This document shows, piece after piece, positions 11,550-23,556 of a stretch of 64,000 nt of DNA; the stretch's first letter is position 1; the number at the start of each line of letters is the position of its first letter. The translations under genes were made by a program, and so were the position numbers. Below the pieces are notes generated by a model, which had not been told where the DNA came from, searched no databases, and saw only the letters and a list, made by a program, of their open reading frames with translations. Origin of the DNA: a virus (lineage: Duplodnaviria > Heunggongvirae > Uroviricota > Caudoviricetes); the IMG/VR virus record IMGVR_UViG_3300045051_000909, positions 64,001-128,000 of that record; one strand, 5' to 3'.

Positions 11550-11553
11550 TTTG

Positions 11554-11640
11554 CAGAGAGTCGAGGTCTTGATCCTCACACGCTTGTCGCGTGCCATCGG
11601 TTTAGCAAACCGCGCTGGGCGCCCGCCCAGTTGGCTCTCC
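11554..11640 (-). tRNA. tRNA-Ser(GCU), 8/4 fold
   Basis: loop TT-GCT-AA; 8-bp acceptor (one C-A), 4-bp T stem GAGG/CCTC, 6-bp D stem, long V arm. Confidence 0.8.
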
Positions 11641-11644
11641 ATAG

Positions 11645-11729
11645 AGGAAGGCAGTGGTCTTGATCCACACGCCCTTGCGAGCGCGCTCCGCTTTCGAGGC
11701 GGGCCTGGTCCCTGACCAGTTTACCTTCC
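11645..11729 (-). tRNA. tRNA-Ser(CGA), 8/4 fold
   Basis: loop CT-CGA-AA; acceptor GGAAGGTA/TGCCTTCC, T stem GTGG/CCAC, D stem CTGGTC/GACCAG. Confidence 0.8.
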
Positions 11730-11738
11730 GAATCTGAG

Positions 11739-11823
11739 CGGAGAACGGAGATCCCGACTCTCACAGACTTACGCCTGCGCACGCGCTTCCAACGCGGCCT
11801 GGTCCCTGACCAGTTCATTCTCC
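11739..11823 (-). tRNA. tRNA-Ser(GGA), 8/4 fold
   Basis: loop TT-GGA-AG; acceptor GGAGAATG/CGTTCTCC, T stem GAGA/TCTC. Confidence 0.8.
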
Positions 11824-11829
11824 AACGTG

Positions 11830-13626: not shown

Positions 13627-13633
13627 AATACGT

Positions 13634-13756
13634 TCTCGTCTGGGGCTGCATTAGCTTCACCAGCCTTGGGAGCCAGATCCGCGAACACCCCAGCCTTCAG
13701 TTGTTCCCAAGAACTTCAGGCCTCCTAAGGGGAGTGGGCTTTATACCCAGACGAGA
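13634..13756 (-). ncRNA. unassigned ~120-nt rod-like structured RNA
   Basis: terminal stem CTCGTCTGGG/CCCAGACGAG plus inner TTGGGA/TCCCAA stem; fills the gap between two tRNAs; strand inferred from the array. Confidence 0.5.
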
Positions 13757-13830: not shown

Positions 13831-13833
13831 TTA

Positions 13834-13943
13834 TAGCGGGGGCAGGAATTGAACCTGCGTAGACCGGCGTATGAGACCAGTGAGTCTTGCCTAGGCTGGG
13901 CCTTCTGAGGGCTTCTGCGTCGGCTCCACTACTCTACCCCGCA
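13834..13943 (-). tRNA. initiator-like tRNA-Met(CAU) with 33-nt D-loop insertion
   Basis: U1/U72 mismatch, A11-U24, loop CT-CAT-AC; insert at 13896-13928. Confidence 0.75.
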
Positions 13944-14011
13944 AGCCCCAGGCGGGAATCGAACCCGCCGGCTGAACCTTAGGACGGTCCGCCAGATCCA
14001 TCGTCTGGGGC
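13944..14011 (-). tRNA. degenerate tRNA-Arg(CCU) with shortened D arm
   Basis: 68 nt; acceptor and T arm intact; loop GT-CCT-AA; only 14 nt between acceptor and anticodon stems. Confidence 0.6.
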
Positions 14012-14015
14012 GACT

Positions 14016-15944: not shown

Positions 15945-15972
15945 AAAAAAAGCCGGGTTATAGGTGGCCCGG
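15945..15972 (-). terminator. intrinsic terminator ending the large ncRNA
   Basis: CCGGG-N10-CCCGG followed by C-T7 on the - strand. Confidence 0.5.
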
Positions 15973-16445
15973 AGAGAGATAGCCTTCTCTCCCCGGGCCG
16001 GTCATTTGGCTTTCTCGCCGACCGTGGTGATCTATGGGCTCCGTTTAAGTCACAGGGTCAGTCTTAGATAGGACGCTCTAGCTTTAAGCTACCGGGCCAT
16101 AAGATATTTGGCGGCCCGGGAGGGACTTCAACCCCCATCTTCCCGTCATAGCTCCTGTAACGTTCGACTAGATCATACGGTTGTTAGTCTGAGCTTGGAG
16201 TGTAACAGCTTGAACTTGAATCTCAGTGCCTCGCTCCTAACTTACGACCTTGCCTCTCTGTGGGCTACCCGGGCGTACTAAGCAGCTACCGAATGGCTTA
16301 CACCGTTTATGGCGGTGCCCAGGTGCACGCTGGGAATTCGGTCGCTGCTTACTATGCCCGGGGGTGGTTACGAGCCACCGCTGGGGGGTCTAGGTTAGGG
16401 CTAAGCATCAGCTATCAGTCTCAGCTTGCACTCCGTAGAAACTGT
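15963..16445 (-). ncRNA. ~480-nt RNA with two circularly permuted tRNA-like modules and a minihelix
   Basis: T arm, acceptor 3' strand, closing domain, acceptor 5' strand, D arm order at 16259-16380 and 16075-16137; 14-bp hairpin 15966-15999. Confidence 0.7.
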
Positions 16446-16447
16446 TC

Positions 16448-17185
16448 CTACTTGTTGAACAAGTAGTCGAGGATCGGGGAGGTGTTGAGCTCCACCGCCT
16501 CATGCATGTTCGCTTCCTCGCGCGACGTCTTCACCGCGCGCTGGAGCTTCTCGACCCGCTCGAAGAGCTCCTTGACCTGCTGGGCCGGCATCGCGCCGGA
16601 GAACTTGACCGTGGTCCAGTAGCCGTCGAGGACGTCGGTCGTCACCTTGACTGCCTGAGCCGGATGCTCCTTGGTCGGCTGGACGATGACCTTGAAGTCC
16701 TCGACCTTCTTCTGGCGGATCGTCTCGACGGGCTCCGTGGCGTGGCAGTTCTGGTTCGAATCCCAGTGCCAGGTCTCGGTCGGATCGAGCGTCGGCAGCT
16801 TGCCGATGAAGGTCTTGAGATCGACCAGCTGCTTCTCGAGCCAGAGCAGATGCGTGGCCGGGACGCCAGTGACGAGCACCTGACCATCGACGATGACGTC
16901 GGCCTTGGCGACGCAGTTGGTCGAGTCCTTCATGCCGACGATGTTGAAGAGCTCGCTGAGGTTGCGCTTGACCTCGGTGATCACCTCGTGCGCTCGCAGC
17001 TGCACGACCTGGCGCTCGGACGGGAGCTTGTCACCCTCTTCCATCTTCGCGCGGTAGGTCTTGGCGAGACCTGCGAGCAGCGCAGGTTTGGCCATGTTCT
17101 GGTAGGCGTCGGTGAAGACCTTGTTCGCCTGGGTCTTGATGCTCTTCTCGACAGCGACAACTTGGTTCAACTTCTTGAGCTTCAT
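16448..17185 (-). CDS. uncharacterised coiled-coil protein
   Basis: 245 aa, GGGAG SD, KLNQVVAVEK..., very high GC3; function unknown. Confidence 0.85.
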   Translation of the reverse strand: MKLKKLNQVVAVEKSIKTQANKVFTDAYQNMAKPALLAGLAKTYRAKMEEGDKLPSERQVVQLRAHEVITEVKRNLSELFNIVGMKDSTNCVAKADVIVDGQVLVTGVPATHLLWLEKQLVDLKTFIGKLPTLDPTETWHWDSNQNCHATEPVETIRQKKVEDFKVIVQPTKEHPAQAVKVTTDVLDGYWTTVKFSGAMPAQQVKELFERVEKLQRAVKTSREEANMHEAVELNTSPILDYLFNK

Positions 17186-17659: not shown

Positions 17660-17732
17660 TGGACCCGAGCGGGATCGAACCGCTGACCTCCTGAATGCCA
17701 TTCAGGCGCTCTCCCAACTGAGCTACGAGCCC
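17660..17732 (-). tRNA. tRNA-Ala(GGC)
   Basis: loop AT-GGC-AT. Confidence 0.9.
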
Positions 17733-17735
17733 GTG

Positions 17736-17808
17736 TGGAGCCAGCCGGAATCGAACCGGCGACATCCAGCTTGCAAAGCTGGCGTTCTCCCAACTGAACT
17801 ATGGCCCC
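17736..17808 (-). tRNA. tRNA-Ala(UGC)
   Basis: loop TT-TGC-AA; G3-U70. Confidence 0.92.
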
Positions 17809-17962: not shown

Positions 17963-19234
17963 CTACTCACGTACCCGATGCTTCATCTCTCGTTCGAGTC
18001 GGCGCTGGTTCTTCCACGCCTTCTCGCTTTCCTTACGGTCGCGCCTCATCTTCTCGTCGTGCCCCTTGACTGTCAAGAGAGAGTGAAGCTCGAACATCGG
18101 CGTAACAAGGTCCGCTTGGTTCTGCATGACGACCTCGATGTCCTTGTAAGCCATCGCGATCTCGTCAAGCACGCCCTTGCCGATGTGGCACTCGACGCCT
18201 TTGGTGGACTCGCGGAGGTCGTCGAGCGTGAACGTCTTGTTGGCCTTGGACCGGCTCATCTTACGTCCAGCGCCATGGCTGGCGGACATCAGGCTCTCGG
18301 GATTGCCGAGGCCTTGCACGATGAAGCTCTTGCGCCCCATGGCCCCAGGGATGATGCCCCACTGACCTTCCTTGGCTTCGATGGCGCCCTTGCGTGCGAC
18401 GATCAGTTTCTCGCCATCGATAACTTCCTCGGTGGCGTAGTTGTGATGGCAGCTGACCCGCATATCGACGGGAGCGTAATCGAGACCCTCAGCGTGCAGA
18501 GCCGACAGCAGAAGGTCCATCATCAGTTGCCGGTTCAGCCGCGCGTACTCCTGCGCGGTCTGCATGTCACGCCAGTAATCGGCGAAGTCAGGGGACTCTC
18601 GCGGAAACACGGCGATGCGCTTGTCCGGAAGATCCCGGTTGATTGGGTGTTCCTCGGCCAGGTGCGCATAGCTATCGGCGACCTCCTTGCCGAAGTTGCG
18701 TGAACCCGAGTGCAGCATGAGCCAGATGCGCCCTTCTTGATCCTCGCACACCTCGATGAAGTGATTCCCCGAACCGAGGGTTCCCATTTGACGCTTGGCA
18801 TTCTCGAGGGAACAGCGAGACTGCCTGGTCTGCTTGACGCGCTCCCACAGCTCCTCGAACTCAGGAGCCTTGGTGCCCGGATGCGCCGTCTCATGCGCAC
18901 AGCCGGTACCATTGGGGATGAACTCCTCGATGCGTAGGCGCAGACCCTTGAGGTCCTTCGGCAACATCGCGGGTGTGAGTGAGGTGCGCAGAGCATCCAT
19001 CCCGCATCCGATGTCAACACCGACGATGCCCGGGGCAACGGCGTCCTTCAACGCCACGACGCTCCCGACGGGGACGCCGAACCCCGCGTGCACGTCCGGC
19101 ATGGCGCGCACGTAGCGTGCGCTCGGCAGATTGGCGGTGTTACGAAGTTGCGTTAGCGCCTCGGACTCCACCTCATGGAGCGGCGCCCACAGCAGTACAG
19201 GCACTTGCTGCCCGTCCATCCGTGAGATCGACAT
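17963..19234 (-). CDS. rtcB: RNA 2',3'-cyclic phosphate/3'-phosphate-5'-OH ligase RtcB
   Basis: MPDVHAG, GVDIGCG, GTLGSGNHF, LHSGSR, HHNY, RKGA, SHGAGR, DEIAMAYK. Confidence 0.96.
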   Translation of the reverse strand: MSISRMDGQQVPVLLWAPLHEVESEALTQLRNTANLPSARYVRAMPDVHAGFGVPVGSVVALKDAVAPGIVGVDIGCGMDALRTSLTPAMLPKDLKGLRLRIEEFIPNGTGCAHETAHPGTKAPEFEELWERVKQTRQSRCSLENAKRQMGTLGSGNHFIEVCEDQEGRIWLMLHSGSRNFGKEVADSYAHLAEEHPINRDLPDKRIAVFPRESPDFADYWRDMQTAQEYARLNRQLMMDLLLSALHAEGLDYAPVDMRVSCHHNYATEEVIDGEKLIVARKGAIEAKEGQWGIIPGAMGRKSFIVQGLGNPESLMSASHGAGRKMSRSKANKTFTLDDLRESTKGVECHIGKGVLDEIAMAYKDIEVVMQNQADLVTPMFELHSLLTVKGHDEKMRRDRKESEKAWKNQRRLEREMKHRVRE

Positions 19235-20065: not shown

Positions 20066-20092
20066 GTGGTCTTCCCCTTGTGAATGTTTCAG

Positions 20093-20431
20093 TGGAGCTG
20101 CCGGGAATCGAACCCGGGTCCGAAGATCAATCCAGAACAGCTTCTACGAGCGTAGCCACTACCGGTGGCGCGGTACTACAGTGGAGCCCCGTTCGCAGAC
20201 GAGTGCGGGCTGCCTCTCTTCCCCGTCATGTGACCCTGTTGGTTTACCCCTGCGGCTACTAGGGTGATCTTGCCTCGGGGTGCCCACGCGGCTTTTTAGG
20301 CCGCCATCAGCTGGGCGCGCTCAACGTTGTCGTTGGCGTTTGTGTCTTTGGTCGGCTTTTAACGTGGCCTGCTGACCAACCACGGCTCGCAACCATTCTC
20401 TCTTTCACTTCGTCGAAACCAGTTCAGCCCC
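20093..20431 (-). ncRNA. ssrA: tmRNA, tag (A)ANDNVERAQLMAA
   Basis: 5' GGGGCTGAACTGGTTTCGAC, G3-U70, 3' GGTTCGATTCCCGGCAGCTCCA; tag ORF 20296-20337. Confidence 0.93.
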
Positions 20432-20526
20432 GAAACCACGGGGTGGAGCCTCGCGGCTCCGCAGTCGCTGTGCGTCCGCCTGTGGTCAATTCCACAGAGT
20501 ACCCGTGGGTGCTTCAACAACTACGG

Positions 20527-22466: not shown

Positions 22467-22539
22467 TAGGGGCAAGCGGGTTCGAACCGCTGACCTGTCG
22501 GTTATCAACCGACTGCTCTACCAACTGAGCTATGCCCCA
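22467..22539 (-). tRNA. tRNA-Ile(GAU)
   Basis: loop TT-GAT-AA; U1/U72 mismatch. Confidence 0.88.
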
Positions 22540-22548
22540 ACAACACTG

Positions 22549-22622
22549 TCTAGGTGGCAGGATTTGAACCTGCGATCTCTCGCATCCGAAGCGAGCGCGA
22601 TACCAGGCTTCGCTACACCTAG
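22549..22622 (-). tRNA. tRNA-Pro(CGG)
   Basis: loop TT-CGG-AT; C1-G72. Confidence 0.9.
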
Positions 22623-22701
22623 ATAGCCGGTCAAACCTCTTGCGAGGCCCCCGTGCGCTTCGGTCCTGCGACCGAGGGGCTTACGTTAACCGCCGAGCGT
22701 G

Positions 22702-22775
22702 TCAGGATGGCAGGATTCGAACCTGCGGCCTCCTGCGTCCAAGGCAGGCGCGCTACCAGACTGCGCTACATCCTG
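22702..22775 (-). tRNA. tRNA-Pro(UGG)
   Basis: loop CT-TGG-AC. Confidence 0.9.
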
Positions 22776-22784
22776 ATGAAAAGG

Positions 22785-22901
22785 GCCGGCGCGCTACCTC
22801 TACGCTACGGTCTACTCAACGTACTCGGCTAATCTGTCTCGCGAGACTCAGATCAGTTGCTACGCCTTTTAACCGACGGGATTCGAACCCGCTCCTCCGG
22901 C
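22785..22901 (-). ncRNA. circularly permuted tRNA-like RNA (YrlA/Y-RNA-like architecture)
   Basis: GCCGG-AGGA-GCGGG TTCGAAT CCCGT-CGGTT...GACCG-TAGCGTAGAGGTAGCGC-G-CCGGC; opened at the anticodon, acceptor capped by a hairpin. Confidence 0.7.
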
Positions 22902-22908
22902 GGCTCTG

Positions 22909-22982
22909 TCAGCGTGGCCGGATTCGGACCGGCGACCTCCTGCACCCCAAGCAGGCGCTCTACCAGGCTGAGCCACACGCTG
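22909..22982 (-). tRNA. tRNA-Pro(GGG)
   Basis: loop TT-GGG-GT; T loop TCCGAAT. Confidence 0.88.
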
Positions 22983-23480
22983 TCATGTACTGATGACCAT
23001 CTTCACGACTACTGCGACGATGGCTACGAAGAGAAACACACTGAACACTCGTAGATGCCAAAGCACATAACCACGAACGATGCGGAACCGCTCAGCGTCA
23101 CAGTTCGGGTTGGGTGTAGGCATCCACCAGCCCGACAACCAGACGATGCAATCGATGCCAGCCAGGACGCCCTCGACGCGCGCGATCCAGTGGTACGCCC
23201 AGAACGACGCTCCTGTGTGCCAAGCGATGGCAAGGATGATCGGGGCTGCACTGATCAGTCCTGTCTGCTGTGGGTTGAACTGTCCCTGGAATTCAACCCG
23301 GGCCCATACAGGGCTCCACCAAGGCCGCCCTGTCCAATCAGGCCAGAGCCGGAAGTGGAAATCCGTCGCGCCATAGAGCTTGGCCACAGCTGCGTGGGAC
23401 AGCTCATGCAGTGCGAGGTGTAGAAGGATACTAAACGGCAGCCAGATGAGAGCGATGTGTAGTGAGTTCATGCTGCCCAT
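22983..23480 (-). CDS. membrane metallopeptidase (M50-like)
   Basis: LALHELSH within TM segments, ISAAP, CDAERF; start at 23471 or 23480. Confidence 0.7.
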   Translation of the reverse strand: MGSMNSLHIALIWLPFSILLHLALHELSHAAVAKLYGATDFHFRLWPDWTGRPWWSPVWARVEFQGQFNPQQTGLISAAPIILAIAWHTGASFWAYHWIARVEGVLAGIDCIVWLSGWWMPTPNPNCDAERFRIVRGYVLWHLRVFSVFLFVAIVAVVVKMVIST

Positions 23481-23484
23481 TATA

Positions 23485-23556
23485 TACCCCCGGCGAGTAT
23501 CGATCTCGCACTTCCGGCTTGAAAGGCCAGCGTCCAGGCCACTAGACCACGGGGGC
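23485..23556 (-). tRNA. tRNA-Glu(UUC)
   Basis: loop CT-TTC-AA; atypical T loop ATCGATA. Confidence 0.85.

Follow-up and report, generated by a model that had tools for sequence, protein, structure and literature searches.

Introduction

The YrlA RNAs of bacteria (Rfam family RF02553; Chen et al. 2014, PMC4201824; Wang et al. 2018, 10.1101/312249) resemble tRNAs in permuted order: the T arm precedes the D arm, a loop caps the acceptor, and the RNA ends emerge at the position of the anticodon stem. Members of the family are further characterized by a Ro60/TROVE gene on the same strand at a distance of up to about 4 kb, by binding to Ro60/Rsr and by modification through TruB and DusA. Here we describe an element of this plan in a large soil phage of the class Caudoviricetes (IMG/VR record IMGVR_UViG_3300045051_000909; 194,266 bp, 100% complete according to CheckV). 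The DNA analysed, called the window below, is a stretch of 64,000 nt covering positions 64,001 to 128,000 of that record, and the element is the entire 132-nt spacer between the genes for tRNA-Pro(GGG) and tRNA-Pro(UGG) on its minus strand (22776-22907). Like YrlA, it adjoins tRNA genes and lies near a gene for the RNA ligase RtcB, and by its sequence it appears to keep nucleotides of the tRNA elbow. Unlike YrlA, it lacks the GNCGAAN0-1G motif, the long bulged terminal stem and a Ro60 gene, it is missed by the covariance model of the family, and its 54-nt acceptor closure is far longer than the Rfam consensus. Acceptor length is variable within the family, and some YrlAs, in cyanobacteria and delta-proteobacteria, are reported to have long acceptors (PMC4201824; 10.1101/312249). 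The YrlA of Mycobacterium smegmatis has Rsr as its protein partner and the gene for Rsr as its neighbour (PMC4201824), and compared with this RNA the element has a weaker acceptor, extended by a stacked rod.

Other described RNAs share parts of this plan. In the circularly permuted tRNA genes of Cyanidioschyzon merolae and some archaea (Soma et al. 2007, as cited in 10.1101/312249), the order of the halves is likewise 3' before 5', with the acceptor ends connected in the precursor; as summarized there, these genes are processed via a bulge-helix-bulge into real tRNAs, whereas the element comes with neither a restorable anticodon loop nor a splicing endonuclease. Two-piece tmRNA, the product of permuted ssrA, also combines a permuted tRNA-like domain with a segment that interrupts it at the acceptor, but the element contains no mRNA-like part or tag, and the only tmRNA found by ARAGORN and Rfam (20092-20431) is of the one-piece type. 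Finally, tRNA-like RNAs have been proposed as cofactors of RtcB (Burroughs and Aravind 2016, as cited in 10.1101/312249). Among them, the b7a-tRNA associated with a Band-7 protein and RtcB is, like the element, a Ro60-independent tRNA-like RNA, proposed to aid RNA ligation; in contrast to the element, it is presented in that account as looking like an ordinary, non-permuted tRNA and as adjoining the Band-7 gene.

Results

The inter-proline spacer folds into a circularly permuted cloverleaf

Four parts make up the element: an open stem of 5 bp in place of the anticodon arm, T and D arms of canonical form and, between these arms, an acceptor helix that is sealed by a rod. Unconstrained minimum free energy (MFE) and centroid folds both gave exactly this four-way junction. 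On the minus strand, the 5' leader AGAGCC (22907-22902) is followed by GCCGG (22897..22901), the equivalent of the 3' strand of the anticodon stem, which forms the 5' half of the closing stem. The V loop AGGA (22896-22893) leads into the T arm GCGGG/TTCGAAT/CCCGT (22876..22892) with G53-C61 and a canonical T loop, and then into CGGTTAA (22869..22875), which corresponds to the 3' strand of the acceptor (tRNA positions 66-72) and is followed by A73. Three helices, GGCGTA/TACGTT, CTGATCT(G)/(C)AGATTAG and GTCT/AGAC, are stacked in the 54-nt rod that seals the acceptor (22815..22868); the rod also contains internal loops and has a 12-nt palindrome at its apex. The 5' strand of the acceptor, TAGACCG (22808..22814; positions 1-7), makes six of seven possible pairs with 22869-22875, the exception being an A2xA71 mismatch; G3-U70 is a wobble pair. 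U8-A9 (22807-22806) precede the D arm GCGT/AGAGGTA/GCGC (22791..22805) with A14 and G18-G19, and G26 (22790), CCGGC (22785..22789; 5' strand of the anticodon stem and 3' half of the closing stem) and the tail CCTTTTCAT (22784-22776) complete the molecule. The two arms were assigned from sequence, fold and ARAGORN, the 3' acceptor strand from sequence and ARAGORN, the rod from the fold, the closing stem from the fold and a descriptor match, and the bounds of the whole unit (22776..22907) from the spacer, the fold and an identical sequence in contig L022 (below).

Judged by its sequence, the element contains the nucleotides engaged in tertiary interactions of tRNA (U8, A14, G18-G19, T54-T55-C56, A58 and G53-C61), with the exception of the Levitt pair 15-48, and no CCA is encoded after its 3' acceptor strand. 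The fold extends the 5-bp terminal stem by four weak base pairs. An earlier note, written from the window sequence and its open reading frames (ORFs), had listed parts of this structure on the minus strand; all of them are present, and the two folds reproduce the architecture. Its outline has to be enlarged to the whole 132-nt spacer, and its acceptor of just 5 bp to seven positions with six pairs. The combination of G3-U70 and A73 is reminiscent of alanine identity. We treat it as a coincidence, because G3-U70 is missing in the counterpart of the element in contig L005 (below) and A2xA71 is mismatched.

The permuted arrangement is more than a chance pattern. ARAGORN made no tRNA call on the element in its native order, while the re-joined halves were called as a 71-nt tRNA with any synthetic 7-nt anticodon loop. 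In addition, we built a strict descriptor of a permuted tRNA that requires a canonical T loop with G53-C61, at least six of seven acceptor pairs closing 3-110 nt, U8, a 4-bp D stem with GG in its loop and a 5-bp closing stem. It matched once on both strands of the 194,266-bp genome, at 22785-22901, and not at all in 30 shuffled genomes. The rod alone folds at -16.1 kcal/mol (z = -2.0), and the genome holds no second copy of it. Over its 2,016 bp, a separate JGI metagenome contig (L022) matches window positions 24118-22103 with 100% identity, all 132 nt of the element included, and the element is thus not an artefact of one assembly; L022 is not provably from a different sample, although a second small contig within the same assembly would be unexpected. 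The possibility raised in the earlier note of a rearranged pseudogene unique to this assembly is countered by L022 and by the substitutions in the stems, which all preserve pairing (below).

The element resembles YrlA without the Ro60-binding part

The topology of the element is that of YrlA, with a T arm, a loop-closed acceptor, a D arm and RNA ends at the anticodon-stem position; fold, ARAGORN on the re-joined halves and the descriptor agree in this, as the earlier note had proposed. The Infernal search suggested there as a check had a different outcome: the Rfam model RF02553, which has a gathering threshold of 69 bits, did not report the element at E <= 10 in the region 22500-23500 or at E <= 1 genome-wide. 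The best genome-wide match to this model (17674-17788, minus strand) is the junction of tRNA-Ala(UGC) and tRNA-Ala(GGC), a false positive due to tandem tRNAs of the sort that Chen et al. (PMC4201824) warned of. Sub-threshold matches in the genomes G000, G002 and G003 were of the same nature, and 13 of 14 control genomes also gave below-threshold YrlA matches.

The features associated with Ro60 are missing as well. A regular expression for GNCGAAN0-1G, the putative Ro60 contact, found no match in the 132 nt, and the long terminal stem that serves as the Ro60-binding module is absent from the element, the L005 counterpart having stems of 7 bp and ~8 bp in this place. The complete 194-kb record contains no TROVE, DUF2828 or Ro60-type vWA domain (PF05731, PF11443, PF25045) and no match to the Ro60 of L005, which bears out the description of the element as stand-alone; a Ro60 gene is found neither within about 4 kb of it nor anywhere in the phage. 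Because the Rfam, motif, terminal-stem and Ro60-proximity tests all failed, we file the element as a variant of the YrlA kind and not as a member of the Rfam family. On sequence grounds, this would be a handle-less variant, devoid of the part that binds Ro60. Wang et al. (10.1101/312249) concluded that the effector of YrlA binds to the T and D stems of the elbow, and the element appears to be essentially that elbow module alone, plus the rod.

The tRNA-like parts are closest to a neighbouring proline tRNA

Among the tRNAs of the phage, the tRNA-like parts of the element are closest to the adjacent tRNA-Pro(UGG) (22701..22775, minus strand), which lies downstream: T loop and G26 are identical, and the D arm is near-identical. 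Six substitutions in the D, anticodon and T stems distinguish the two, and all six keep the pairing. Four of them are compensatory doubles, by which a U-A pair of the anticodon stem and an A-U pair of the T stem have both become G-C, and the other two each produce a wobble pair. Six random substitutions left all 14 pairs intact in ~6 of 10,000 trials (P ~6e-4). The element looks derived from a tRNA-Pro, with its stems kept paired. No tRNA-Pro has acceptor strands related to those of the element, which nonetheless base-pair with one another and run on into the stacked rod. A model in which YrlA arose from a tRNA dimer takes the T arm from one tRNA, the D arm from the next and the "acceptor" from the spacer between them (Sim and Wolin 2018, as cited in 10.1101/312249). 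The makeup of the element is what this model, as outlined there, would predict, which is suggestive but not proof of such an origin.

The next spacer of the array, between tRNA-Pro(UGG) and tRNA-Pro(CGG), is structured too (22623..22700, minus strand; 78 nt). It folds into a stem-closed three-way junction of -31 kcal/mol and has in common with the acceptor of the element a CGGTTAA...GACCG stem, which occurs in only these two places on that genome strand. The similarity is confined to these ends, since the interior of the spacer is not significantly similar to the rod (P ~0.3). The equivalent slot of L005 holds a stem-closed spacer of 69 nt with a different sequence.

Modules of the same plan recur in other tRNA arrays

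Megablast and blastn searches of 50,697 phage records with the element returned only matches to tRNA-Pro. Exact and gapped DNA patterns gave no match in viral contigs, and the four matches of the gapped pattern in metagenome contigs were all ordinary tandem tRNAs with long spacers. Likewise, DUF7873, ORF165 and ORF357 as protein anchors retrieved no close phage relatives from viral and metagenome contigs.

A distant syntenic relative is L005, a metagenome contig of 197,865 bp with the gene order Glu-Pro-[139 nt]-Pro-[69 nt]-Pro-Ile-His. Its 139-nt spacer (L005 7494-7632), located in the same inter-Pro slot as the element, has a YrlA-shaped fold (z = -3.4) in which a 7-bp terminal stem, an internal loop and a second stem (~8 bp) are followed by T arm, short closed acceptor and D arm. 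It aligns to the Rfam YrlA model over its full length at a sub-threshold 26.5 bits, and a true Ro60 (TROVE + vWA_Ro60, 553 aa) is encoded a few kb away. In comparison, the element has ~30 nt fewer on the 5' side and ~22 nt fewer on the 3' side of the terminal stems, and ~50 nt more in the acceptor closure. The 3' tail GCCCTT(C/T)TTCAT is very alike in both.

Further solitary YrlA-like modules are present in the tRNA arrays of related large phage contigs (L001 6144-6290, L001 3311-3440 and L005 9599-9733; z = -2.7 to -4.6), one of which, L001 3311-3440, has a closing stem of only 5 bp. The strict GNCGAAN0-1G motif is absent from all three, even though L005 encodes Ro60. Another YrlA-like RNA lies between tRNA-Met and tRNA-Pro in L009, an unrelated AT-rich viral contig, and scores 40.3 bits with the Rfam YrlA model (E = 7e-6). 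Across 12 vetted modules, the core of T arm, closed acceptor and D arm is 94.8% paired, compared with 70% for shuffled sequences, with both partners changing in 12 of its 16 pairs. Long acceptor closures are seen in sister modules too.

The element is embedded in a large tRNA array

The element lies in a very large tRNA array on the minus strand (24751 to 11476), which comprises 38 tRNAs detected by ARAGORN, the tmRNA, several non-canonical tRNAs missed by that program and a few interspersed protein genes, among them those for RtcB and a DUF7873 protein. Together, ~42 tRNAs, tmRNA, RtcB and DUF7873 with its two-headed RNA make up a tRNA-maintenance kit of the phage. tRNA-Pro(GGG) (22908..22982, minus strand) is located directly upstream of the element. 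The RtcB gene (17963..19234, minus strand; PF01139, E = 1.4e-109) is 3.5 kb away, in line with the proximity to rtcB that the earlier note had mentioned for YrlA, and both it and the DUF7873 cassette are within 6 kb. No promoter-like or terminator-like site was found on the minus strand between 21900 and 25200, and on this basis the element is read as part of a polycistronic tRNA transcript. ARAGORN found no gene for tRNA-Gly(CCC) or tRNA-Val(CAC) in the window, and the phage has no CCA-adding enzyme, splicing endonuclease (PF01974) or Rnl-type ligase that we could find. The phage was found in four rhizosphere DNA metagenomes, with no RNA dataset among the listed sequencing runs; the contig depth that these runs give over the tRNA genes in 22500-23100 stems from other organisms, and the core of the element is left uncovered even by the run that is the probable source, which we ascribe to filtering of the records.

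The array has several other unusual members. ORF165 (22983-23480, minus strand), directly upstream of tRNA-Pro(GGG), is an ORFan that has no homolog among 5.8 billion proteins except identical copies. At 11550-11828 (minus strand), three tandem tRNA-Ser-like genes with the anticodon loops GGA, CGA and GCU, long D arms that resemble hairpins and unusual T loops (ATCAAGA twice) were missed by both ARAGORN and Rfam. Two further undetected tRNA-like genes are found at 13831-14015 (minus strand), one of which combines an aberrant D region with an anticodon loop that reads CCU (Arg), whereas the second has a normal acceptor and T arm and a very long interior. The 130-nt spacer between tRNA-Met and tRNA-Val (13627-13756, minus strand) is closed by an 11-bp terminal stem and folds at -49 kcal/mol; no Rfam family matches this spacer at the gathering score. 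A "tmRNA_permuted" match of Rfam at 20296-20487 (minus strand; 54 bits, above gathering) is an artefact that overlaps the ordinary one-piece tmRNA.

A DUF7873 cassette carries two further permuted modules

The DUF7873 gene (16448-17185, minus strand) is 5.6 kb from the element and forms a cassette with the RNA region downstream of it (15945..17185 in total, RNA part 15945-16447). This region contains two permuted tRNA-like modules, at ~16250-16405 and 16046-16161, and the element is indeed the third permuted module of the window, as counted in the earlier note. The module at 16046-16161 carries GTCGAACG, which matches GNCGAAN0-1G, as well as an embedded G-CCA. DUF7873 is always followed by 400-500 nt with two permuted modules, namely in this phage, L001, L005, Arthrobacter phage Mimi and a bacterial locus; such DUF7873 genes with tandem modules in non-coding DNA are located at L001 10001-11153, L005 10001-11145, L006 10001-11144 and L003 10001-11206. 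In one module of each phage cassette, N-CCA stands right after the 7-bp acceptor strand (G-CCA in the window, T-CCA in L001 and L005, A-CCA in Mimi), which hints at a mimicked or processed CCA end in the DUF7873 RNAs. Mimi has no TROVE protein.

The AlphaFold model of DUF7873 is confident (predicted local distance difference test score, pLDDT, of 90). Foldseek found no meaningful match to it in the PDB (template modelling score, TM, <= 0.16) and only unnamed relatives among AFDB clusters; the best VIA-align score (Z = 8.2) was to helical designs and at background level. We found no paper on the DUF7873-associated RNA. The element and this two-headed RNA have the same permuted tRNA-like plan. 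The element differs in being single-headed, in not standing immediately downstream of DUF7873, in its more canonical loops (TTCGAAT, G18-G19) and in having its own closing stem. A 10-mer common to the rod and the DUF7873 RNA of Mimi was disregarded, as ~10% of shuffled rods match too.

Discussion

We tentatively favour the view, to which we give somewhat less than an even chance, that the element is a co-transcribed mimic of the tRNA body that works without Ro60, as a decoy or a cofactor in the tRNA-maintenance programme of the phage. As a small non-coding RNA gene within the polycistronic tRNA transcript, it would acquire its 3' end by the RNase P cut at the 5' end of tRNA-Pro(UGG) and its 5' end by 3'-end processing of tRNA-Pro(GGG), and an RNA of ~130 nt would be freed. 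The product would be an L-shaped tRNA body that is unchargeable due to the lack of a free CCA, non-decoding and uncuttable in the anticodon loop. Lacking GNCGAAN0-1G and the long terminal stem, it should not bind Ro60 by the known determinants. Instead, a tRNA-binding factor may recognize its elbow and body, and the RNA might act either as a sponge or, in line with the earlier note, a decoy for a host enzyme directed at tRNAs or as a cofactor of the tRNA-maintenance kit.

Several observations weigh against this view. The folding energy of the whole unit is unexceptional (z = -0.9), as is usual for RNAs the size of tRNAs. The acceptor is weak at its outer end, where A2 faces A71, and the Levitt pair reads as a non-canonical G15 with A48. 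No ortholog of this architecture was found, and true covariation is therefore missing for the closing stem and the rod. Moreover, the stems could be intact simply because the tRNA from which they descend was functional until recently. A covariance model of the 12 sister modules, built without the element, aligns it (22784-22902) at 30.8 bits (E ~4e-8), but 13 other sites score higher; these include one training sequence, and the three that we inspected in alignment are ordinary tandem-tRNA junctions, so that this model does not discriminate. Finally, a complete syntenic phage of 209 kb, represented by contig L012, has small ORFs in the slots between its three tRNA-Pro genes (L012 2197-2686 and 2763-2998), one with a signature like that of cytidine/deoxycytidylate deaminases (HSE...PCxxC). 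These ORFs imply that the cargo of the slots is dispensable and that the slots act as variable cargo sites. Neither TROVE nor DUF7873 is present in that phage.

Somewhat unlikely, in our judgement, is that the element is a by-product, namely a young, functionless leftover of a rearrangement of tandem tRNA-Pro genes (3' half, spacer and next 5' half) that is passively transcribed and then degraded. Its position in a run of three tRNA-Pro genes, its likeness to tRNA-Pro(UGG), the ORFs in the same slot of L012, the lack of a conserved ortholog and the modest stability of the rod would all fit, and intermediates of this kind are predicted by the dimeric-tRNA model as cited in 10.1101/312249 (Sim and Wolin 2018). 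However, a leftover would require two independent deletions that end exactly at both boundaries of the anticodon stem, and it does not account for six of six pair-preserving substitutions, for acceptor strands that are not those of tRNA-Pro but pair and continue into the rod, or for the recurrence of solitary modules of the same plan in related arrays. A connection with DUF7873, in which the solitary module is an extra "head" that joins the protein and its two-headed RNA as a third ligand in a Ro60-independent particle, is improbable. It draws on the regular occurrence of two modules after DUF7873, on the lack of TROVE in Mimi and in this phage, and on the phages with solitary modules and checkable context (this one, L001 and L005), which all have DUF7873; L009 showed none, in a record that is only 29% complete, and the complete phages G002 and G003, with neither DUF7873 nor Ro60, gave only tandem-tRNA false positives with the YrlA model. 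Against it stand the distance of 5.6 kb with genes and tRNAs between, the absence of specific sequence in common with the DUF7873 RNAs beyond generic tRNA features and of a recognizable RNA-binding fold in DUF7873, and the fact that the co-occurrence comes from a handful of genomes and from a model that misses the element.

We see a slight chance that the closed molecule is a precursor, as in the case of M. smegmatis YrlA: RNase P would cleave 5' of the internal acceptor strand, the rod would be trimmed, and a host enzyme would add CCA to yield a two-piece tRNA-like molecule. Seven acceptor positions are the length that made M. smegmatis YrlA a substrate of RNase P (PMC4201824), A73 follows the 3' strand, the rod would then equal the intervening sequence of permuted tmRNA genes, and in each DUF7873 RNA the acceptor strand of one head runs directly into an encoded N-CCA. 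On the other hand, the acceptor with its mismatch, wobble and terminal A-U pair is weak, coaxial stacking of the rod on it favours the closed form, and the phage neither encodes the CCA nor has a CCA-adding enzyme of its own. That the element serves as a Y RNA for a putative host Ro60 (Rsr) and redirects Ro60 or PNPase is very improbable. The topology, the long-stemmed YrlA-like RNA in the same slot of the Ro60-encoding L005 and the GNCGAAN0-1G match GTCGAACG in the sister module at 16046-16161 invite this reading, but the element itself has no such motif, closes with 5 bp and a weak 4-bp extension and receives no score from the Rfam model; the hijacking of host Ro60 or PNPase considered in the earlier note finds no support in the sequence when held against the determinants in PMC4201824. 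Barely credible, finally, is a permuted tRNA gene of the Cyanidioschyzon merolae type, whose ends are joined and whose rod is removed to give a functional tRNA, perhaps an isoacceptor missing from the array. Although the re-joined halves score as a tRNA, RtcB is present and Gly(CCC) and Val(CAC) were not detected, AGAGCC and CCTTTTCAT give no 7-nt loop with U33 as we read them, and joining them directly makes a loop of 15 nt. The acceptor mismatch and the lack of a tRNA-splicing endonuclease and an Rnl-type ligase in the phage speak against it too, as do the ends, since RtcB does not join termini of the kind produced by RNase P and RNase Z, 5'-P and 3'-OH.

Returning to the Ro60-independent tRNA-body mimic, a bolder version, which we consider decidedly unlikely, combines several of these strands: a functional mimic near its birth from tandem tRNA-Pro genes that acts, alone or as a third ligand of a DUF7873 particle, in counter-defence against host nucleases directed at tRNAs. 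The mimic would matter without this extension as well. RNAs of the YrlA type have been defined and understood only as partners of Ro60, and their tRNA-like half has been named the "effector-binding module". Finding this effector-binding half alone in a complete phage that lacks Ro60 suggests that the tRNA-shaped module may be useful in its own right, and the element offers a minimal object for finding what binds to it. In addition, its position among its presumed parent tRNAs makes the dimeric-tRNA origin of Y RNAs concrete and testable. If the element were a mere by-product, it would be a curiosity; if it proves to be a decoy or repair cofactor, the conflict between phage and host over tRNAs would gain an RNA component.

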